From IMG/VR virus record IMGVR_UViG_3300003690_000041, positions 1-55,809 of that record: a stretch of DNA of 55,809 nt. The stretch is one strand, 5' to 3'. The first letter of the stretch is position 1. Each line of letters starts with the position of its first letter. A program made the position numbers and the translations under genes. The notes beneath the pieces were generated by a model. It searched no databases. It saw nothing but the letters and a program-made list of their open reading frames with translations, and was not told the DNA's origin. Positions 3,231-40,855 of this stretch are shown piece by piece. Source of the DNA: a virus. Its lineage: Duplodnaviria; Caudoviricetes.

Positions 3231-6200
3231 CTACGCTGCCAGTAGTTTTTGAACCTGCATTTCAAGCTGATTAATGCGTGTTTCGTACCCTTCTTTTATC
3301 ACCATAATGTCTTCATAGTTCTGCCAAACAGCACCATTTAGCGCCATTACGTGACGAGAGATATTCCACATTCCACCCTCTTTCACTGGTGCGCCTAAGA
3401 TTTTCATGTCCACCAGTTCTGGTTCATGAATCGTGACAAACTCATCCCACCGACTCTGCACGTATCCGTCGGCACCATTTCTGGCTCTTACCATCTCAAA
3501 ACCACGAACAATGTGCCTATCATTGATCTCATCGGTCAATGCAACAAGGGTGGTATTGGTGAGGTGCATTTGACCGTCTTCATCAACCATCATTCGGGTC
3601 ACCATAGACCCGTCGACCTGTGCCCGTATCGCAAACACATTTCCGTCAGCATTTATATTAGCCAATGCGTTAGAGCCGTTGTGTTCAGCGATAGCAAAAT
3701 TGACCAACCCTACAGCCCCAGCGTTGCTTTTTGACGTACTTGCCGTTCCGCCCTGCGCAGAAAACTGAAGAACAGTAGTAAAAACAGCATCCTCACCATA
3801 CGCAGCGATATTTAATCCACCCAAGGTGGCACTGTTTTTACTAAACCGTGCATAACTATCTGTCTCCATAGCGAAATCTATGTGATTGCTTGTAAGTCCA
3901 TGCGCAATATCGCTGGACTTGAAATTGAGGATTTCGTCGTCATTGGCATCTTGATTAATGGTCATACCTACAGTCATATTAGCGTTGGCAATCTCCGTTC
4001 CCATATAAACGGTTCCTGCTGCACTGATACGCATAGAACGAAGATTTCCAGCATAAAAGTCTAATGTATCTACGCTGTGGTCATATTGTACGCGGCCCTG
4101 TTTGGGTGTTCCCGTTGCGTCTGCAAAATAAAGCGCACTGGACTCTCCGGTTCCTGTAACTAGGGTGATACCTGATTGCGCTGACCCACCCCCAATAATT
4201 AAATCATCCGCAAGAGCGTCAAATCCTAGTTCTGTTCCACCAATAGCAAGCTGAGAACCGATGAACATATCTTTAGCACACCCAATACCACCATCGGTGT
4301 GAATAGATCCTGTCACGGTAGATGTGCTGTCTGTGGCGTCATCAATGCTCAGAACGCCCGATCCTGTAATGGTCGATGCGGTGAGGACTGTAAGGGCAGA
4401 AGTCCCTGCCACCGTCAGCCCAGCAGCACCAGCAAGTATCAGGTCATCGATAGATGCATCCCACAACATATGAGCACTTGCTGTAGCCCCGAAGAACTTG
4501 ACATCGTACCCAGCATCGTCCACACCCACCGTGACGGTACTATTAAACTGAGAAGTGCCTGAAGCCGTAAGAACTGTAAGGGCAGAAGTCCCCGCCACCG
4601 TCAAGCCAGCAGCTCCGGCAAGTATCAGGTCATCAGCCGACTCATCCCAGAGGAGGTGTGCGCCTGCTGTGGCACCGAAAAATTGAACGTCGTGACCTGT
4701 ATCGTTAACGCCCACGGTCAGGGTATTTGTCAATACAGAAGTCCCTGCCACCGTCAGCCCAGCAGCACCGACAAGTTTTAGATCATCAGCAGACGCATCC
4801 CACAGACAGTATGCCCCCGATGTAGCCCCGAAGAACTTGACATCGTACCCAGTATTATCCACGCCCACCGTGACGGTACTATTAAACTGAGAAGTGCCTG
4901 AAACCGTTGTAACTGTAAGAGCAGATGTCCCCGCCACCGTCAACCCAGCAGCGCCAGCAAGTATCAGATCATCAGCCGACTCATCCCACAGACAGTAAGC
5001 ACTTGCTGTATCCCCGAAGAATTTAACATCGTATCCAGTACCATCCACGCCCACTGTGACGGTACTATTAAACTGAGAAGCACCTGAAGCCGTAAGAGTA
5101 GTCCCCACAATCGCAGCAAACGAACCAGCCGCGACAGAAGCAGCACCGATAACGGTTCCATCAATAGCACCACTGTTGATGTCCACATTAGTCATTTCAT
5201 GGGTGTTAAAGTCAATCTCAACAGCACCATCACCGCCAAAGGTTAGCTTTCCGGCAGAGTGCGTCAACGTCACGTCACCGCCATCCCAGTTGAACACCGC
5301 ACCTGTAGCAATCAACAAGTCATCGCCCAAATAAATATCCTTAGCTACACCTAACCCTCCGTCAGTGTGTATAGAGCCTGTCGTAGCCGATGAGCTGTCG
5401 GTGGTGTCGTCAATGCTTAAAACGCCCGATCCCGTAACGGTCGTTGCGGTCAGATTAATGGCACCGCCTGACGTAATCGTCAAGTCGGTGTCATCACCTT
5501 CGATCTTTTCACCTGAACCAAAGGTAACACCCACGTTGGCAGGGACAACCACATCAGTCGTTGCAGTCAACTTAATGTCACCACCTGATGTCACTGTCAA
5601 GTCGGTGTTATCGCCTTCGATCTTTTCACCTGAACCAAAGGTAACACCCACGCTGGTAGGGACAATCACATCAGTAACGGCAGTCAAATTGATGGCACCA
5701 CCCGATGTAATTGTCAAGTCAGTATTGTCCCCCTCGATCTTCTCGCCTGAACCAAAGGTAACACCCACGCTGGTAGGGACAATCACATCAGTGACTGCCG
5801 TCAAGTTGATAGCACCACCCGATGTAATTGTCAAGTCAGTGTCATCGCCTTCGATCTTTTCACCTGAACCAAAAGTGACACCGACGTTGGCAGGGACAAC
5901 CACATCAGTCGTTGCGGTCAGATTAATGTCACCACCTGATGTCACTGTCAAATCAGTGTTATCACCCTCGATCTTTTCGCCCGTACCAAAGGTAACACCC
6001 ACATTAGCTGGTATTACTACATCAGTAACTGCCGTTAAGTTGATGGCACCACCCGATGTCACTGTCAAGTCAGTGTTATCACCTTCAATTTTCTCACCTG
6101 AACCAAAAGTGACACCCACGTTGGCTGGTATTACTACATCAGTCACGGCAGTCAAATTGATAGCACCACCTGATGTCACTGTCAAGTCAGTGTTATCACC

Positions 6201-12252: not shown

Positions 12253-12539
12253 GTCCTTTGCTCCACGAATTCAATAACACGAACATCTGCCGTTCCTGTC
12301 GATACAATGCCATAGATATCACCACGGTAGAAAAACTGGTGATGCTCGCCTCCTTCGAATTCCCACTTCATCTTAATACCGGGGTCGAGAGCTATACCCG
12401 AAGCAACAGTCACCCCACTTCCATCACCTATACGCACTACCTGTGCGGAGTTATTCTCGATGATAAGGGAAATGCGTTTATAGTTCTTTACTGCAATAGC
12501 AGTTGCTGTGGTTCCTACGCTGACAGCAGCAGTAGACAT
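12249..12539 (-). CDS. Hypothetical small beta-rich protein
   Basis: 96 aa, coupled to its neighbours. Confidence 0.6.
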   Translation of the reverse strand: MSTAAVSVGTTATAIAVKNYKRISLIIENNSAQVVRIGDGSGVTVASGIALDPGIKMKWEFEGGEHHQFFYRGDIYGIVSTGTADVRVIEFVEQRT

Positions 12540-13453
12540 TATTTCACTCCACAGATGTCCAGCATATGCTTGAGCCTGTGTTGGTAGGTGTGGTTGCCCC
12601 TGACCAGTTCATGTCCCTTCTTTGCTATCTCTTCCCTCTCCGTCGAGTGGTTCAAGTAATATGTCGCCTTATCTATTGCTTCGTTTACTCCATCATACAC
12701 GATAAAATGCTCGTCAGGAACAAAGCCCACATCCTCATACCCTTCCTGGTCCCCGTTGGACATCATCGCTGTCCCCGTAGACATCACTTCAAAGAATCGC
12801 ATATTGAGGTCGTCGCGTATGCTCACATTAAAACCCAGACGGGACCTAATATAACGCACCGCCATGTCTTCCCAGAAGCCACTGATGGTGAGCCACGAAT
12901 CAGGGAATGCCTTGAACATAGCATCCAGGTAATTGATCCTGTTATGGTATCCAGGCTCATCAGGTGGGTCTTGCATAAAACCCACAAAGGCGAGATCGTG
13001 CTGTTTCTCCAGCCCCCTGTCTCCACAGTGGTGGTCTTTCTCTGGATGCACCATCATCTCGCTGTAATTGGGGTGAGCAGGGGGGTGACACGCCAACGGC
13101 AACCAAAAGGCTTTCTCTATACCATCTTCGCGCATCTTTACAGCACCCGCCTTTTGCGCCGTAAATACGTAATCGAAGTCTCTGGCCCACGATAACCTCC
13201 TGTCATAGCCGAGGTGTGTGTCTATCAACCATATGGCATTGGGCTTGGGAGGTGTCCAGTCGATATCGTCGCGTCCGTCATCTATCTGTATGTTCAGAAC
13301 ATGTTCTGAGACATTGATACCGGGACGAGAATACCTCTTCATCTCCAGTCCCATTCCGTGACCGTGACCACGGATGTCTCTCAAGGCGTCCCAGACCAGG
13401 ACACCCGTGCCGTTATTTCTTACCTCTGCATTATAGAAAAGGCCTATAGACAT
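12539..13453 (-). CDS. Glycosyltransferase, CgeB / Glyco_trans_1_2-like (GT-B)
   Basis: WLPLAC, DLAFVG, DLNMRFFEVMSTG, EREEIAKKGHELV..HTYQHR motifs. Confidence 0.85.
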   Translation of the reverse strand: MSIGLFYNAEVRNNGTGVLVWDALRDIRGHGHGMGLEMKRYSRPGINVSEHVLNIQIDDGRDDIDWTPPKPNAIWLIDTHLGYDRRLSWARDFDYVFTAQKAGAVKMREDGIEKAFWLPLACHPPAHPNYSEMMVHPEKDHHCGDRGLEKQHDLAFVGFMQDPPDEPGYHNRINYLDAMFKAFPDSWLTISGFWEDMAVRYIRSRLGFNVSIRDDLNMRFFEVMSTGTAMMSNGDQEGYEDVGFVPDEHFIVYDGVNEAIDKATYYLNHSTEREEIAKKGHELVRGNHTYQHRLKHMLDICGVK

Positions 13454-14691
13454 GGCGTAGCGACAACCCCGAAGTTGCCACCGTAGAACTCACTATGGTC
13501 TTCAACAGACCATCCTGCGGTAGTCAGTATGTTAGTAAGGCTTTGCGGTGTGAAAGCATGGACATGGGTATAGTCCACGATCATCGTGTCAAGGCGAGAT
13601 ACATCAGGGGTGGTGATCACCATATGACCATCATCCTTCAATACCCTGCGCCATTCTGTCAATGCCTCTATGGGGTCTATGAGATGTTCAAATACGTGGA
13701 GGGCGACGATGTAGTCGACGCAATGGTCTTGCATAGGGATATTCAATCCATCAGCGGTAATATTGGGATTAGCGCCCAGCGTCTTCTGCCTTCCTGACCC
13801 TGTCTCATTTATCTTCCGCTGGTCTACGCCAATTAACCCCTCAATACGGTCATTCCCGCATCCTACATTTAACCCTCTTCCCTCTCCAAATAATTCGATA
13901 TGGGCATTCGCCCACTCTCTCTCCTCATCAAATCGTTCTGTATTAGGAATAGGATTATAGGGGATAGTCTTGGAACACAGCGTGTCATACCACTTCCTGA
14001 CACCGTGTCTACGTATAAGGGCGTTATTTGTCATGTCCTGATGATTGAAGCTGTCCCAGCCAGGACGCACCCTACGGCCCGTCTGCTGGCCTATATGATG
14101 AAGATAGCAGCTTCTCTGAACAATCAACTTATATCCTGCGTCTATGATCTTTATCGACCAGTCAAAATCATCCCCTCCCGGCAGGGTCTCATCCAACCCG
14201 CCAATCTCTTTGAGCAAATCCGTGCGTATGATCACACAGAAACCAATCAACAAAGTGGATTCATGAATCATAGGTAATTTGATATTCCATAGGTTCTGTG
14301 ACCCCATCACAAAATTGCTCACAGGACCGACTGCCCCCACAGAAGGATCTGAGAAAGGCTGAACCATCTTACGCCAAAATCCTCCATCATTCGGCAGGAA
14401 GACTACATCATCGTTCAACAAACAAACAAAAGGGGTGTCGCAGTTCTTCAAAGCGAGGTTATGTGCAGCCATCCATCCCAGATTAGTCCCCGCGTGGATG
14501 ACATCAATTTCTCCGAAGTCCGTCCCTGCTACCGCCTCATCCAAATACTGACGAGTGGTGTCCAAACCGTCGTTGTTGATGACTGTGAGGTGATACGGAA
14601 ATTCAGTATAACGAACCAACGAGTTGAGACAATCATTCAACTGCTTGGGGTTACGGTAAGTGGGTATTTGTATTGTGACAATCGGGTCCAT
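13444..14691 (-). CDS. GT2 glycosyltransferase fused to a class I SAM methyltransferase
   Basis: IQIPTY..CLNSL, LLNDD, IGGLDE..DDFDWS (GT2); LNVGCG, HVFEHL..ALTEWRRVLK.DG (MTase). Confidence 0.88.
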   Translation of the reverse strand: MDPIVTIQIPTYRNPKQLNDCLNSLVRYTEFPYHLTVINNDGLDTTRQYLDEAVAGTDFGEIDVIHAGTNLGWMAAHNLALKNCDTPFVCLLNDDVVFLPNDGGFWRKMVQPFSDPSVGAVGPVSNFVMGSQNLWNIKLPMIHESTLLIGFCVIIRTDLLKEIGGLDETLPGGDDFDWSIKIIDAGYKLIVQRSCYLHHIGQQTGRRVRPGWDSFNHQDMTNNALIRRHGVRKWYDTLCSKTIPYNPIPNTERFDEEREWANAHIELFGEGRGLNVGCGNDRIEGLIGVDQRKINETGSGRQKTLGANPNITADGLNIPMQDHCVDYIVALHVFEHLIDPIEALTEWRRVLKDDGHMVITTPDVSRLDTMIVDYTHVHAFTPQSLTNILTTAGWSVEDHSEFYGGNFGVVATPCL

Positions 14692-14692
14692 A

Positions 14693-15223
14693 TCAAGCCT
14701 TTATAATAGCCATAGCGCCACAGGACTCATCCGATGTCCTAAGAGGGAGCCAGTGGTAATCGTTGATAAAATCAATAATTGCTTCTGTCATCGTAGGTCC
14801 TTCTTCCATCTCTTTCTTCGGGTAGTTGGCAAGACCATTATATCCATTGTGGAATCCGTTTGTGTCTTTGAAGGCTACGGTATCGTGCATACAGATGACG
14901 GCACCTTCTCTGGTGTACTTGTCCAGGGCTTCCAATTCTTTCTTCAGCGTCCACCCATTGTGATCGGTATCCACAATAGCAAATTCAATCTCCGTGTTCC
15001 CCTGTATCTCCAGGTAAGAAACACCCGTTATCCATTCGACATTATCAAGCCGTTTGATATGATCTGGACACTTTCCGATATCTATCGCCACCACAGGAAC
15101 CATCGAAGCAAGAGCTTTTGTGTTCTTCCCTCCTGCTGCACCCAGTTCCAGCACCCACGAAGGCTTATGTGTCTCGATCAGTTCTTTCACATTTAAATTC
15201 TTATCCCAATGCCCCTGGAACAT
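14693..15223 (-). CDS. Class I SAM methyltransferase (Methyltransf_24-like)
   Basis: VLELGAAGG, AIVDTDH, GAVICMHDT motifs. Confidence 0.8.
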   Translation of the reverse strand: MFQGHWDKNLNVKELIETHKPSWVLELGAAGGKNTKALASMVPVVAIDIGKCPDHIKRLDNVEWITGVSYLEIQGNTEIEFAIVDTDHNGWTLKKELEALDKYTREGAVICMHDTVAFKDTNGFHNGYNGLANYPKKEMEEGPTMTEAIIDFINDYHWLPLRTSDESCGAMAIIKA

Positions 15224-28602: not shown

Positions 28603-29465
28603 TAGTTCAGGAATTTCACTCAATTAGCCCTGAACTATTTTACTACTTAATTGAGCCTCTCAATCAAGTTCGGTGACTGGAGTGTTATTCCAGAACATGT
28701 TCTGAGCGAGAAAATAATCAAAGGTTTTCTTCTGGTCTTCTCCTGACAATGAAGATCAAGCCTCTCCCTGCCTGAACAGGGAAGAGGCTGACAGGGATAG
28801 TCACAAGGGATGTTCACCCATCACCCTGTGATACCCATCACCTAATGAGATGCTTGGTGGCAGGAAGCCAGCAACGGGTGCATTACCTCTGCATATGTGG
28901 CTGTGAGACAACCAAACCGTGACGATGACACCATCTCTAACCCCTCGCCCAAGATGGCTATGGCGAAAAAAGGGCTTGAAAAGCCCAGAGGCGACGATGG
29001 ATAGCACAGGGTTCAATCCACAGTGAGCGCAACCTCAACATATATCAGAGCAGGATGCAAGGCATTAGTATGAGATGCCATACGACCTCCCTTTATGGGA
29101 GCCGACCTGAAGCAACCAAAATGGAGAGTGCCAATAATGGGCACGATCTCTCGCTTAACACGACAGGAGCCGCAAATCCCGTCCATCTCTCCTTCTGACA
29201 ACAGACCTATCGGGGCAACGGATGCGACTAGCAACCGCAATAACCAACTGGTCCCAGAACATGTTCTGATGGCAAAGGAAGAGAGGATGCGGAGCAGGCC
29301 CAACCCAGTGAGATGAGCGAGCATAGTGAATCCTAATCTCGACCCGTTCAATCGGGGGTGTGGAAACGTCGAAATGCCCCACAAGTCAGCACCTTCTTGT
29401 GGTGTGGGGTGTTGAAACAGGGACTCCTTCAGAACTTGTTCTGATCCCTGTGGACTAACGCTGAT
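28603..29465 (+). ncRNA. Candidate large structured non-coding RNA or leader
   Basis: About 860 nt without a convincing RBS-led ORF; many hairpins, e.g. AGCCTCTCCCTG/CAGGGAAGAGGCT and GGGCTT-GAAA-AGCCC. Confidence 0.45.
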
Positions 29466-36248: not shown

Positions 36249-36623
36249 ATGTATGAAGAAGACACCTTAATAGCCAAAGAAGAAGTCATTGATATGATGA
36301 AAAGTAAACACTTAAACTCCTGGCTTTTGATAGGTGCTGGACCCGATGGAACAGCACACGCCATCTACGGAGACAGGAGGTCGATTGCCTACTCTTTCAT
36401 CAAATCATTATCCATCATTCCCGGACTACAGGAACTGCTGGAAAAGGCATTGGAGGCTGCTATGGAGACAATAAAAGAATGCGGTTCCCTCATGGAGGTA
36501 AACGAGCAGGAGCAGGAAGGCCTAATCCGTGGAATGAAAGACTTCACAAAATCACACTTAGAGTCCCAGAAAGGATTTATAACAGACTGGTCAAGCGTGC
36601 AGAGTCCAAAGGGCAAGGACTGA
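36249..36623 (+). CDS. Hypothetical protein
   Basis: AGGAG RBS; 3' part overlaps the RHH ORF. Confidence 0.6.
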   Translation: MYEEDTLIAKEEVIDMMKSKHLNSWLLIGAGPDGTAHAIYGDRRSIAYSFIKSLSIIPGLQELLEKALEAAMETIKECGSLMEVNEQEQEGLIRGMKDFTKSHLESQKGFITDWSSVQSPKGKD

Positions 36624-36670
36624 GCTACACCGTAGTAGAAATACTGAATCGTATCTCAAAATTCCTATAA
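36479..36670 (+). CDS. Ribbon-helix-helix (Arc/CopG-like) DNA-binding protein
   Basis: HGGKRAGAGRP leader, KITLRVP beta strand and two helices. Confidence 0.65.
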   Translation: MRFPHGGKRAGAGRPNPWNERLHKITLRVPERIYNRLVKRAESKGQGLSYTVVEILNRISKFL

Positions 36671-36683
36671 GGAGACAAAAAAG

Positions 36684-37208
36684 ATGACAGCATCAAAAGA
36701 TGAAAGACCAAAAAACTACACCTTCTTCGGTGGTGTACGTGTTCCTGTCCCGAAATGGTTGGCTGTGGACCTCGCTGTTGCACGCCAATATTCAAACATG
36801 ACCCGTCCACAGGTCTGTAATATGATCAATGACGCCAATGGAAGACATCCGACTAATGGGGCACTCTCTTCTATCGAAAGCGGTAAGACGAAAAAGATAG
36901 GGAAATTGCTGTTGAACGGAGTGATTCAGTTCATCGCCAACTTTGGCCCCCCTAAATTGGCGGAAAATGTAGACAAATATGAGGATGCTGATGTCGTCAA
37001 AGTGAAGAAGTATGAAGCCTTCGCTGAAATTGAGACGCTCGAAAAAAAAGTCAATGAATCTGAAGATCGGCTGGACAGGATGTTCGCTGCTTTTGAAGAC
37101 CTGGATGCCGACGAACAACAGATCATATGCACTCTGACAGAAAGACTTGCAAAGGCCAGCAAGGTGTCTGCTGCTGTCCAAGAGTTCACGGAGAAACACA
37201 CGGCATAA
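36684..37208 (+). CDS. XRE-family HTH regulator
   Basis: ARQYSNMTRPQV...ALSSIESGK; TAAGGAG RBS. Confidence 0.65.
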   Translation: MTASKDERPKNYTFFGGVRVPVPKWLAVDLAVARQYSNMTRPQVCNMINDANGRHPTNGALSSIESGKTKKIGKLLLNGVIQFIANFGPPKLAENVDKYEDADVVKVKKYEAFAEIETLEKKVNESEDRLDRMFAAFEDLDADEQQIICTLTERLAKASKVSAAVQEFTEKHTA

Positions 37209-37278
37209 CCGTGTATATTATGAGACCCATATCGTGTGTGTGAACCGTTATGCCTATGAGACCCAGACTGTTCATGTG
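37207..37278 (+). ncRNA. TIGR-like mini-array (two 36-nt units)
   Basis: AACCG-N9-TGAGACCCA-N9-TGTG twice, in register. Confidence 0.75.
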
Positions 37279-37288
37279 AAAATAATCC

Positions 37289-37318
37289 TTGACATGGAGG
37301 TCCATGTGTGTGTATCAT
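37289..37318 (+). promoter_or_regulatory. Sigma70-like promoter upstream of the main array
   Basis: TTGACA-18-TATCAT. Confidence 0.55.
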
Positions 37319-37725
37319 GAAGCACACTAAAAAATAGGTTGCCGATAAACTTGATATTATATATCTTTAATATCGCAGAATTAAGAGCCAATAGTAAAAA
37401 GGGTGTCAAGTCCCTTCGGCAACTATTGGCTCTTTTTCTGTTTCATAAGGAGGAACTGTGGCTCTCCTCAATAAAAACGCCACCGTATCGGCTACGTTAC
37501 AGCGCCTTGACCCTCGATGGGTCTCGCCTAATACCACGGGGGGGGATATGCGCATGTACCATGAAGTCTAACATGTACAACATTTACCTCTTCCTGCAAT
37601 TAATGGATAGCGAAGCAGGGATAGCGAAGCGTGGGGTACATGTACCATGAGTAAGACGGTAAGGGAAGAAAAGTATTTCCTTACCTTTTTACATGAAAAA
37701 AATTAGGTCGGTTCTGAGAAAAGAA

Positions 37726-38159
37726 AACCGTTCTCCTAATGAGACCCACCCTTTACATGTGAACCATTTTACTCATGAGACCCGTCATTTTTATGTGAAC
37801 CATCTTACTTACCAACCCAACCTCAGGTGTGAACCATAGCCTTTATGTGAACCATATGCCTTATGAGACCCGTCATTTTTATGTGAACCATTTTACCTAT
37901 GTGAACCATAGCCTTTATGTGAACCATAAATCTCTTGAGACCCGTCACATAAATGTGAACCTTTTGCCCAACGTGAACCGAAGCTTGAATGAGTCCCAGA
38001 GCCAGCATGTGAACCGTCAAACAAGTGAGAACCAAAGTGTGTGTGTGCTTAACCGTTAAGCATTATGTGACCCAGAGGTATCATGTGAACCATACTCATC
38101 TTGATACCTATATTTATTATGTGAGCCAGTAACCGTTTGAGAACCAGTTATCGAATGCG
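37726..38159 (+). ncRNA. TIGR-like tandem interspaced guide-RNA array (24 spacers, mostly 9 nt; 18-nt period)
   Basis: Two repeat types, TGTGAACCR and TGAGACCCR, separated by variable 9-mers; ends in TGCG 33 nt before a Nop/IS110-fold gene. Confidence 0.85.
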
Positions 38160-38192
38160 TTTTCCCAGAACATGTTCTGAAAGGAGAAAGAC

Positions 38193-39032
38193 ATGCAAGA
38201 GAAAGAGATCAGGCTGATAATAGACAGCTTCTATTCCATCCAGCACCTGCGCATAGAAATAGGCAACAGAATGAAGATGCTGGTGCGAGACTACCCAGAA
38301 GAAGTAACGGAAGAAAAAGCAGGTGAGTTACACGAAATGATCAGTGGCAACCTGATTCGTACAGAAAAAGAGATAGAGAAAAGGGTGCGTGCTTTTATCA
38401 AACCACTACCCCTCTACCAACTGTGGCTCAAGCCACACGTAAAAGGGATAGCTGAATTGCTGGGTGGTGCCCTCATTGCTGCCATTGAAGACATCGGTAA
38501 ATTTGACACGGTGTCCAAGCTGTGGATATATTGTGGCATAGGGCTAAAGCCTGCCCTGGACAAAGAAGGTAACCCATTACTCGATGGGGATGGCAACATC
38601 CTATATGAGATACAGCGCAAGAAGAAAGGAGAAAAGATAAACTACTCCCCTTTCCTGAAAACCCTGTGCTGGAAGATAGGGGAATCATTCGTGAAGACAG
38701 GGACGCGTGGGTTCTACGGGGATATGTATAAGAAATACAAAGAAAGGGAGACAAGGAAACAAGCAAGAGCAGGTGTTCAGATCGTTGCTGAAGGGGATGC
38801 ACAAAAGCTCAGGAAGGAGGGGAAGAAAGCAATAGGTAAGGCACACATACATAACAGGGCCAGGAGAAAGGCTGTTAAACTGTTCCTGAGCCACCTATGG
38901 GAGGTATGGAGAGAGATAGAAGGGTTGCCCACGCGTGTCCCCTATGTGATAGAGCATCAGCCTGACACGGGAGTGACACATCATTACATTGATCCACCGG
39001 GGTGGCATCTGGAAAAAGATAAGGGAGACTAA
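38193..39032 (+). CDS. TasA-like RNA-guided protein (coiled coil plus Nop / IS110 C-terminal-like domain, no nuclease domain)
   Basis: VKGIAELLGGALIAAIEDIGKFDTVSKLWIYCG, YSPFLK, YGDMYKKYK, HIHNRARRKAVKLFLSHLWEVWR; no N-terminal DEDD/RuvC or HNH; adjacent to the array. Confidence 0.8.
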   Translation: MQEKEIRLIIDSFYSIQHLRIEIGNRMKMLVRDYPEEVTEEKAGELHEMISGNLIRTEKEIEKRVRAFIKPLPLYQLWLKPHVKGIAELLGGALIAAIEDIGKFDTVSKLWIYCGIGLKPALDKEGNPLLDGDGNILYEIQRKKKGEKINYSPFLKTLCWKIGESFVKTGTRGFYGDMYKKYKERETRKQARAGVQIVAEGDAQKLRKEGKKAIGKAHIHNRARRKAVKLFLSHLWEVWREIEGLPTRVPYVIEHQPDTGVTHHYIDPPGWHLEKDKGD

Positions 39033-39198
39033 AAATGGCAGGGACATAGGCAGAACTTCCTGCTAATGACAGCTTGAAGAAAATTCTGTCAGTTTTTATT
39101 CCGGTCTGTCACCAGTTGCATTTTTCTTAGAAAAATCTTGCGTTATACGTCCTCACTCAAACCCATTCGGTTTTATGCAATCAACCAAGGAGAGAGCA

Positions 39199-39462
39199 AT
39201 GGAAAACGTCATGAGCTACGATGAAGCGTTAGAGAAATATAGGAGAGGTGCTGGAACGATGATCACTGGTCCAAACGTCAGTCTGAAAGAATGGGCGCGT
39301 ATCGTGGACGTTAAATTGTCCTTTGCCTACGAGTTGTCCCGACACAACCGCATCGAGGGGATGTTCCGGGTGGGAAAGTTCATCCGGGTGAATTTGCCTG
39401 CTTTTTTTGCAGCAAAAGGCATTGAGCCATGGAATGACACAGCAGAGGAGCTTACCGAATGA
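39199..39462 (+). CDS. Excisionase-like (HTH_17/MerR-type) DNA-binding protein
   Basis: SLKEWARIVDVKLSFAYELSRHNRIEGMFRVGKFIRV. Confidence 0.7.
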   Translation: MENVMSYDEALEKYRRGAGTMITGPNVSLKEWARIVDVKLSFAYELSRHNRIEGMFRVGKFIRVNLPAFFAAKGIEPWNDTAEELTE

Positions 39463-39953
39463 AAGAATACATCATCACCTCAACAGAAGAGACGGAAGAT
39501 GTGAGCGTCACGGTGAAGAGGAAGGACGAAGACGGACACGCCGTCCTATATGATATGCCTCACATCATATACCATTCACCCACTGGGCTGGAGTATGGAT
39601 ACGGGGGGTCAGGACCAGCAGACCTCGCCCTGTCTATCCTGGCAGACTTCTTTGAAGAAGAGCCACCGCGTCGCACACACAGTAAGTTCTACGACTTCAA
39701 CCCTCGGTGGATAGAATGTCAGGTGTGCGAAGGGCGTGGCTCTACCAGAGCATCTGCGACTTCGACTACTGAGACCTGCTCTGACTGTGATGGAGAGGGA
39801 GGAAGGAGCAAGTCCTGGTATTGCTGGATCAACCACCAGGATTTCAAGTGGGACTTCATCGCAAAGATGGACAGAAATGAAGGGTTCGTCATCAAGGACA
39901 CCGATATCAAACAGTGGCTTTCTACGCGCGTGAGCGAGAAAACTGTTTCTTGA
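39459..39953 (+). CDS. DUF6166-like protein with an inserted DnaJ-type zinc finger
   Basis: HSPTGLEYGYGGSGPADLALSIL and HQDFKWDFIA flank CQVCEGRG..CSDCDGEG. Confidence 0.7.
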   Translation: MKEYIITSTEETEDVSVTVKRKDEDGHAVLYDMPHIIYHSPTGLEYGYGGSGPADLALSILADFFEEEPPRRTHSKFYDFNPRWIECQVCEGRGSTRASATSTTETCSDCDGEGGRSKSWYCWINHQDFKWDFIAKMDRNEGFVIKDTDIKQWLSTRVSEKTVS

Positions 39954-39978
39954 CAACGGGAAATGTATTTCGTATATT
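39950..39978 (+). promoter_or_regulatory. Sigma70-like promoter, probably giving a leaderless MTase mRNA
   Basis: TTGACA-17-TATATT; ATG begins 6 nt after the -10. Confidence 0.6.
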
Positions 39979-39983
39979 GGGGT

Positions 39984-40508
39984 ATGCAGAAATACCAGAT
40001 CATATATGCTGATCCCCCGTGGTCAGTAGGTGCGACCAATCAGAATCCCAGTGGTCGCCGTCACGTATCACCCTACCTTGCGATGCGACAATGTGACATC
40101 TTTGATCTGGATGTAGTTTCGCTTTCGCACACGGACTGTTGCCTGTTCCTATGGGCGACAGCCCCCCTCCTTCCTGAAGCGATCTATGCCCTCAAAGCCT
40201 GGGGCTTTGAATACAAGACCGTTGCCTTTACGTGGGTGAAGAAGAACAAGAAAGCATCCTCTTGGTTTTGGGGTATGGGATCGTGGACCCGGAGTAATCC
40301 TGAATACTGTTTACTTGGTATGAAGGGTTCGCCTAAAAGAGTATCCAGAAAAATTCATTCCGTAATAGACACACCCATCGAAGCTCATAGCAAGAAGCCA
40401 GATAGTGTGCGTGATAAAATCGTTGAATTATGTGGTGATGTGCCACGCATAGAGCTTTTTGCGCGAGAAAAAATTTCAGGGTGGAATTCATGGGGAAACG
40501 AGGTATGA
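39984..40508 (+). CDS. MT-A70-family adenine methyltransferase
   Basis: IIYADPPW, LFLWAT, AWGFEYKT..FTWVK, GMGSWTRSNPE, HSKKPD, RIELFAR. Confidence 0.92.
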   Translation: MQKYQIIYADPPWSVGATNQNPSGRRHVSPYLAMRQCDIFDLDVVSLSHTDCCLFLWATAPLLPEAIYALKAWGFEYKTVAFTWVKKNKKASSWFWGMGSWTRSNPEYCLLGMKGSPKRVSRKIHSVIDTPIEAHSKKPDSVRDKIVELCGDVPRIELFAREKISGWNSWGNEV

Positions 40509-40618
40509 CCTATCCACCACCGGGAGGAGTCTCCTGATTCGCCCTTGGGGTGTGCTCCCGGTGCGTGTTGACATGTCGCACCCCAAGGGTTTAATCTCAG
40601 AACATGTTCTGAAAGGAG

Positions 40619-40855
40619 GTGAAGACGTTGGGCAAAATCAGAGATGCACGCCAGTCCAAAGGGTTGACCACCCATCAAGTAGCAGAATATATCAGTTCAA
40701 CAGATCGAGTGGTTAATATGTGGGAAGCAAAAGACACCGTGCCTTTTCTGCGTCCTGCCCTCTTGCTGTCCAAGTTGTACGGCATCCCCGTCAAAGAGAT
40801 GTGCGCGTGGGAAGATGGGGACAACAGCCTCAAGGTGCCACGCTGTCAAAGCTAA
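40619..40855 (+). CDS. Cro-like XRE HTH protein
   Basis: IRDARQSKGLTTHQVAE...WE...LSKLYGI; AAGGAGG RBS; TTGACA promoter at 40568. Confidence 0.75.
   Translation: MKTLGKIRDARQSKGLTTHQVAEYISSTDRVVNMWEAKDTVPFLRPALLLSKLYGIPVKEMCAWEDGDNSLKVPRCQS

Follow-up and report, generated by a model that had tools for sequence, protein, structure and literature searches.

TIGR-Tas systems, including TasA, a nuclease-free form that occurs in phages, were published in 2025, and the published list holds 20,096 tas loci (PMC12045711). As described there, TIGR arrays consist of two alternating repeats of 8–12 nucleotides (nt) separated by 9-nt spacers. Both repeats open with UG (box D) and close with CCA (box C), the edge repeat has one more base pair, supported by covariation, and the arrays begin and end with cut edge repeats (PMC12045711). 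Here we describe a locus of this kind in a tailed phage (Duplodnaviria; Caudoviricetes), IMG/VR record IMGVR_UViG_3300003690_000041; the window, i.e. the stretch of DNA that was analysed, is the whole record of 55,809 bp. The locus is a genuine, well-formed and ordinary member of the TIGR-TasA group with odd array details, and it leaves knowledge of the family unchanged. Because TIGR-Tas has been published, is represented by a curated NCBI model and includes a nuclease-free form with demonstrated activity, this is not a new system. A preliminary description, made from the DNA letters, had pointed out an array and the gene that follows it; a second, small array further upstream had been missed. 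The three elements are:

37726..38159, + strand: main TIGR array, 434 nt, 25 repeats and 24 spacers, upstream of tasA
38193..39032, + strand: tasA, 279 amino acids (aa), ATG start, AAAGGAG 7 nt upstream
37207..37280, + strand: small TIGR array, two canonical, perfect 36-nt units

The locus resembles FpTIGR, the dual-repeat TIGR-TasA system of Flavonifractor plautii, which according to its published description is likewise phage-borne, with a solo protein made of a coiled coil and a Nop domain, and with an array beside it in which edge and loop repeats take turns, spacers are 9 nt long, box D is UG, box C is CCA and the terminal edge repeats are cut (PMC12045711). Unlike in FpTIGR, the array here lies upstream of the gene, is split in two and contains four spacers with an edge repeat on either side, a comparison drawn with the published description of FpTIGR. 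Two further nuclease-free Tas proteins, MbTasA (10.64898/2026.09.09.750476) and PlTasA (10.64898/2026.08.11.744272), are reported to bind target DNA via both spacers. MbTasA also represses transcription, which is the mechanism proposed below for this locus (10.64898/2026.09.09.750476), whereas PlTasA is served by a stem-loop array (10.64898/2026.08.11.744272) in place of the dual-repeat array found here. The structurally characterized proteins TaTasR (9mty) and SpTasH (9vzx, 9w03, 21kl) share with TasA of this phage a coiled coil, a Nop domain and a conserved tyrosine of the processing loop (Y251, aligned with SpTasH Y289). However, each has at its N terminus a RuvC or HNH nuclease of ~65–110 residues that TasA does not possess, and SpTasH H296 aligns with D258.

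Judged from sequence, the split array, the half units in which a spacer is flanked by two edge repeats, and a shifted histidine would be departures from the family pattern, and the latter two could inform the rules of guide processing. The locus provides a well-resolved example of phage TIGR-TasA in a complete genome, recurring in many marine metagenomes, and could serve as a natural case for open questions such as what TasA targets in nature and how arrays change over time.

A Tas protein that begins where the nuclease domain ends

The preliminary description had noted an open reading frame (ORF) of 279 aa lying 33 nt beyond the array, with Nop-like and IS110 C-terminal motifs, and had proposed profile and structure comparisons with Tas, Nop and IS110 proteins. 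The ORF was read directly at that distance (from the array end at 38159 to the tasA ATG), and the comparisons bore out the assignment: the product is TasA, a nuclease-free Tas protein. It scored 183.7 bits (cutoff 100; E 4.3e-54) against NCBIfam NF052498.1 (TIGR_Tas_endo), an equivalog model for TIGR-Tas proteins, and 16 bits (cutoff 140) against the IS110 model NF033542.1. Pfam returned a single sub-threshold hit to PF02371 (IS110 C-terminal; 13.9 bits, cutoff 21.3) and no nuclease domain. Searched alone against PDB sequences, TasA matched TasR (9mty_A, from an entry of TIGR-TasR with tigRNA and target DNA, E 2.1e-23) and TasH (E 5.4e-9), and a profile of 45 sequences extended these matches to E 7.8e-59 for TasR 9mty, E 2.4e-29 for TasH and E 2.5e-6 for the IS621 recombinase.

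The AlphaFold model of TasA (predicted local distance difference test (pLDDT) 94.2, predicted template modelling score (pTM) 0.88) comprises two long helices, residues 2–33 and 40–69, followed by a mostly helical domain. In this predicted structure residues 2–69 are a coiled-coil hairpin and the remainder is a Nop-type RNA-binding domain. The first ten rows of a Foldseek search with the model were all TasR or TasH, and VIA-align gave the highest scores for TasR (Z 21.2, root-mean-square deviation (rmsd) 2.1, 202 aligned residues) and TasH (Z 20.2, rmsd 3.5, 236 aligned), followed by IS621 and ISCro4 (both Z 14.3). TasA therefore shares an RNA-binding Nop-like domain with the bridge-RNA recombinases of the IS110/IS621 group (8wt6, 9t56), as seen in both the profile match and the fold, but lacks their DEDD catalytic domain, and is accompanied by an array where they have a single bridge RNA. 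Fold matches to Nop proteins were only middling (Prp31 3siv_K, VIA-align Z 8.4 with 157 aligned; 9n6v_SB, Z 7.3; Nop5 1nt2_B, Foldseek E 1.2), and TasA has no extra N-terminal domain of the kind found in Nop5 and Nop56/58.

The absence of a RuvC/DEDD or HNH domain, which had also been claimed at the outset, is evident from the superpositions. Residue 1 of the TasA model falls on TasR residue 109 and TasH residue 66, and the proteins superpose from the coiled coil onward; TasA thus starts where their nuclease domains end. When two copies of TasA were modeled together, the pair scored 0.43 compared to 0.00 for the best control, with an interface formed by residues 2–64 of the coiled coil, a partner pLDDT of at least 79 and agreement among three runs in at least 95% of contacts. 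The pass mark applied here is reached by 20/30 solved pairs and 1/23 single chains. Since Tas dimers of this kind have already been solved, the result shows likeness to them, and may reflect structures already known to the predictor.

The C-terminal loop of TasA holds Y251 together with H263/H264. The equivalent loop is of interest since TasH reportedly cuts its own precursor with Y289 and H296 (PMC13421893), and a Tyr/His dyad has been described as general for dual-repeat systems (10.64898/2026.09.09.750476). SpTasH Y289 aligns with Y251, in a column that is Tyr in 37/45 sequences. Within a close clade of 15 sequences, H263 is invariant and lies in an HHY motif, and one relative (L001) combines the same HHY motif with a regular array.

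Repeat anatomy and natural variation of the arrays

The preliminary description had reported a 434-nt array with an 18-nt period, two repeat types and 24 spacers, all of which were recovered by direct reading, Tandem Repeats Finder and a motif scan; the two 36-nt units that it quoted are present letter for letter. Tandem Repeats Finder returned periods of 18, 36 and 72 nt for the main array. The motif scan identified 21 repeat cores at 18-nt steps, each within two mismatches of TGTGAACC or TGAGACCC, which together with the cut edge repeats at the two ends and two degenerate copies (37812 and 38044) make up the 25 repeats. Exact copies of the 8-mer TGTGAACC number 11 on the + strand across the whole 55.8 kb, all between 37239 and 38084, and none on the – strand, and this confinement to the arrays and to one strand places the repeat array far beyond chance.

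Both repeats have the form TG....CCR, matching box D and box C. TGTGAACCR can be assigned as the edge repeat because the main array opens with its 5′-cut form AACCG and closes with its 3′-cut form TGCG; TGAGACCCR is the loop repeat. Cut edge repeats occur at both ends of both arrays. The additional base pair also separates the two classes, as the edge repeat can form a U3–A6 pair and the loop repeat, with A3 and C6, cannot. A corresponding asymmetry was found among relatives, where in 31/40 regular repeat runs positions 3 and 6 can pair in one alternating class and not in the other (C-G in 21, U-A in 6, U-G in 2, with 2 scored C/A by consensus).

With E denoting an edge repeat, L a loop repeat, l and x degenerate or hybrid copies, and E′ a cut edge, the main array reads E′ L E L E l E E L E E E L E E L E L E x E L E L E′. 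It can be parsed into ten edge–loop–edge units of 36 nt (one of them degenerate, at 34 nt, and another 40 nt long) and four edge–spacer–edge half units, whose spacers lie at 37837, 37891, 37909 and 37963. The earlier layout therefore stands as regards TIGR anatomy and 36-nt units, but not as regards strict alternation. Edge–edge stretches were also found, with few or no differences, in contigs of sequencing runs X2, X3 and X4, indicating that they are not an assembly fault. Other irregularities comprise a 72-nt block duplicated within 37828–37979, a 3-nt insertion in the edge repeat at 38044, and hybrid repeats at 38026, 38066 and 38138. The hybrids occupy loop positions (TGAGAACC twice and TGTGACCC once), and all are without the 3–6 pair, as expected of loops. 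What comes after the main array is tasA and not a terminator.

The small array alternates without exception on the strand of tas, whereas the main array does so with four breaks. The small array opens with the cut edge AACCG and closes with the cut edge TGTGAA, and between these come loop TGAGACCCA, edge TGTGAACCG and loop TGAGACCCA again, every repeat being parted from the next by a spacer; exact repeat cores stand at 37221, 37239 and 37257, again in 18-nt steps. It starts two letters within the stop codon of an ORF at 36684..37208, whose product gave a weak match to helix-turn-helix (HTH) proteins; in run X3, this ORF carries a 30-nt in-frame insertion near its end, at 37187, just before the small array.

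Turning to relatives, a narrow motif scan found arrays at 12/80 viral loci encoding a relative, all on the tas strand, a result that does not show the other 68 to lack arrays. The closest relatives found (55% identity; L163, L164 and L169) have the same edge repeat, TGTGAACCA, and a different loop repeat. The L164 array (3705–4003) has an internal 72-nt duplication of its own, with one changed spacer letter, and L163 (2983–3336) and L164 carry a common array in which spacers differ by single letters and repeats are unchanged. A scan for other arrays with the same two repeats returned 43 loci; those inspected among the loci listed proved to be either coding repeats of collagen-like type, with a period of 9 nt, or isolated chance matches. 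Collagen-like coding repeats in phage contigs (L120, L122, L123, L162 and others) match TG....CC often and are a source of false TIGR calls.

Variation among marine populations was examined in contigs of four runs from four studies, and the tallies given here are of the best-supported differences. Seventeen such variable positions fall in the two arrays, 15 of them in spacers and two at the ninth repeat letter. None falls within the 229 core letters (out of 508), where ~7.7 would be expected under an even spread. In the small array, likewise, the changes listed from other metagenomes are only in spacers or at the ninth repeat letter. In three cases a 1-nt gain was matched by a 1-nt loss inside the same spacer, the length of which was preserved. 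Larger changes altered array length: one X2 contig is longer by 36 nt, joints in run X15 go back 72 and 66 nt, and a form in X3 has 130 nt replaced by 24. In tasA, 9/10 listed differences are synonymous, the remaining one being A67V. These patterns suggest constraint on both the repeats and the protein, with arrays changing by duplication or loss of units together with drift of spacers. The internal 72-nt duplication, the 36- and 72-nt differences between populations and the confinement of point changes to spacers may further suggest that TIGR arrays obtain ‘new’ spacers when units duplicate and then drift, and not by capturing foreign DNA. How TIGR arrays acquire spacers is stated as an open question in published accounts (PMC12045711; 10.64898/2026.09.09.750476).

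Around the main array, and between it and the small array, four further features were recorded:

37289..37318, + strand: promoter-like site TTGACA-18 nt-TATCAT, between the arrays, a consensus match only (11/12)
37385..37443, + strand: long GC-containing hairpin followed by a T run, from the fold of 37281–37725 and the sequence; unlisted by a simple terminator scan
37658..37695, + strand: terminator-like hairpin with T run, from the terminator scan, 30 nt upstream of the main array
38166..38179, no strand: perfect 14-bp palindrome CAGAACATGTTCTG, between the main array and the tasA ribosome-binding site

Between the arrays, the 445 nt of 37281–37725 fold far better than shuffled sequences (z –5.25), and the hairpin at 37385..37443, ~100 nt past the small array, is likely a terminator. 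Two direct repeats, GATAGCGAAGC and ATGTACCATGA, each occur twice in the same region, which also contains an ORF of 37 codons at 37459 with a strong ribosome-binding site. Single-base gains in other runs, at 37378 and in a G run at 37537, argue against coding between the arrays.

Proposed mode of action and competing explanations

We consider it very probable that a marine tailed phage here carries a TIGR-TasA system of the dual-repeat type, acting in the following way. Transcripts of the arrays would be cleaved within every edge repeat, after TGTG and before AACC, to give up to 12 guide RNAs (tigRNAs) of ~36 nt with the form AACCR-spacer A-loop-spacer B-TGTG, one of which would be held per TasA dimer. 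Spacers A and B would then pair with opposite DNA strands of an adjoining 18-bp site, one spacer to each strand. Such a site should read as spacer A followed by the reverse complement of spacer B, an order inferred from the 8-nt 3′ overhangs and cleavage rule in the published account (PMC12045711). As TasA has no nuclease, the complex would sit on the DNA, leaving it uncut, and may block a host gene or a competing mobile element at the level of transcription, or perhaps of replication. Published work on TasA proteins reports binding and pull-down of 36-nt tigRNAs (PMC12045711), a shift of target DNA and repression of a targeted reporter (10.64898/2026.09.09.750476), and a structure in which both spacers are paired to opposite strands (10.64898/2026.08.11.744272).

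The spacers offer some clues to the targets. Their G+C content is 32.3%, compared to 48.4% for the phage and to a mean of 48.3% (standard deviation 2.9) in sets of random phage 9-mers, the lowest of 2000 such sets being 37.7%. The targets are therefore probably AT-rich DNA other than the phage's own. Spacers in the 5′ half of the main array are T-rich and alike, and include two identical pairs. Beyond composition, relatedness among spacers was not significant (8 pairs within two mismatches compared to 4.2 expected, with 115/2000 shuffles as high). A scan of the phage genome for self-targets gave two sites with three mismatches, both in the disfavoured half-site order and about the number expected by chance. 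According to the published accounts, natural targets are generally unknown because 18 bp yields many chance matches (PMC12045711; 10.64898/2026.09.09.750476).

Several observations weigh against the proposed mode of action. In one chain of the main array 3/9 adjacent pairs are same-type neighbours, compared to 0/143 in 17 arrays of relatives, a count kept apart from four further rows (L019 and L020) in which the loop is one letter off the edge and which, judged by eye, do alternate. The four edge–edge half units do not fit the 36-nt unit, and the loop repeat at 37812 has lost box D. The terminator-like hairpin stands just 5′ of the main array, with no clear promoter after it. In TasA, D258 aligns with the catalytic H296 of SpTasH, in a column that is His in 30/45 sequences; as the clade has H263 instead, self-processing is not assured. 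Beyond the best-supported differences tallied above, there are 65 more between the populations. One X4 contig matches the locus as far as 38186, where it passes into the sequence at the start of ORF 40619, such that a form without tasA, two small ORFs and the MT-A70 methyltransferase may exist, although the full form with tasA is also present in X4 (9.7-kb contig). None of the listed runs in which the phage occurs is an RNA run, and transcription, processing and loading of the guides are presumed from published relatives. Nor do the genes point to a host: TasA relatives occur in genomes of many phyla, relatives of the DnaB helicase are without clear taxon, and capsid relatives are scattered over unrelated phages. 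With regard to targets, the 12 spacer pairs in both half-site orders gave no site within two mismatches in the phage genome outside the arrays, and exact 18-bp targets of the two guides searched out of 12 (units 37981 and 38129) numbered zero in the viral collection.

A number of these irregularities would also be expected of a TIGR-TasA system in decay, in which the protein may still work and much of the main array is the product of duplication and scrambling without useful guides. The four half units, the loop at 37812 without box D, the insertion in the edge at 38044 and the hybrids at 38026, 38066 and 38138 are consistent with such a history, as are the alike, T-rich spacers of the 5′ half with their two identical pairs and the possible variant that joins 38186 to the sequence at 40619. 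However, none of the 17 listed population differences touches a repeat core, paired 1-nt gains and losses preserve spacer length, and the hybrid repeats have kept the character of loops at loop positions. In addition, tasA is intact, with 9/10 of its listed differences synonymous, and the edge–edge blocks are retained in three other runs. On this balance, we regard decay as unlikely.

The half units could also be more than debris. If every edge repeat were cut, they would yield 18-nt RNAs with a single spacer (AACCR-spacer-TGTG), two of which might fill both symmetric sites of a TasA dimer in trans, an arrangement that would let the phage combine half-guides freely. We hold this to be very unlikely.

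The proposed block by TasA itself differs from a scheme in which DNA-bound TasA recruits a nuclease, or another effector, from a gene elsewhere. Recruitment of a partner in trans had been raised in the preliminary description, and found no support here. Nothing specific speaks for it; the neighbours at 39175..40508 are of unknown function save one MT-A70 methyltransferase, and there is no nuclease gene beside tasA. Furthermore, published TasA proteins are reported to repress alone (10.64898/2026.09.09.750476), and the account of the discovery reports no constant partner genes (PMC12045711). Such a partner seems highly improbable.

Finally, the 18-nt repeat might be thought a hexapeptide-repeat coding sequence beside the remnant of an IS110-type transposase, given that short ORFs of 48 and 76 aa with YVNH-like repeated peptides cross parts of the array and that PHROG 4285, the family of the tasA product, is annotated ‘transposase’, but as far as sequence goes this is refuted, and we consider its chance negligible, since no ORF spans the array and the frames are broken on both strands, populations differ there by single-base gains and losses and by 36- or 72-nt changes, true coding repeats caught in that motif scan are of quite another appearance, with a period of 9 nt, and TasA falls far below the IS110 cutoff and has no DEDD domain.

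The phage genome and a repeated palindrome

Genes for a major head protein, large and small terminase subunits, a DnaB-type helicase, a RusA resolvase and an MT-A70 methyltransferase were recognized in the phage; no integrase was found among the ORFs scanned. The region 36600–39600 is present in part in 20 listed runs from 16 studies, all of them hydrothermal-vent, seawater or marine metagenomes. Among deposited phages, there was no DNA match to 37000–39500, and the sole protein match to TasA was a distant one in a Microcystis phage (30% identity). Scans of viral and metagenome collections with the single TasA protein returned no relative, unlike alignment-based scans, which did find TasA relatives. 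Rfam gave no match within 36900–39300, and PADLOC gave no match.

The palindrome CAGAACATGTTCTG between the main array and tasA is one of nine exact copies in the genome (13295, 25264, 26311, 28691, 29255, 32451, 38166, 40598 and 44276), with one-mismatch copies at 29430, 31213 and 34686; ~3.3 matches would be expected at up to three mismatches. Several copies lie directly before the ribosome-binding sites of + strand genes, namely ORF 32481, tasA and an HTH gene at 40619. The palindrome is thus probably a phage-wide operator, regulatory site or transcript signal, and not part of the guide array. Together with AAAGGAG, it forms a stretch of 21 identical letters at 38166–38186 and 40598–40618. 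Elsewhere in the genome, the structural gene block includes two glycosyltransferase genes on the – strand (12539–15223), one of them fused to a methyltransferase domain, and, within the same interval and strand, an additional methyltransferase-like ORF.

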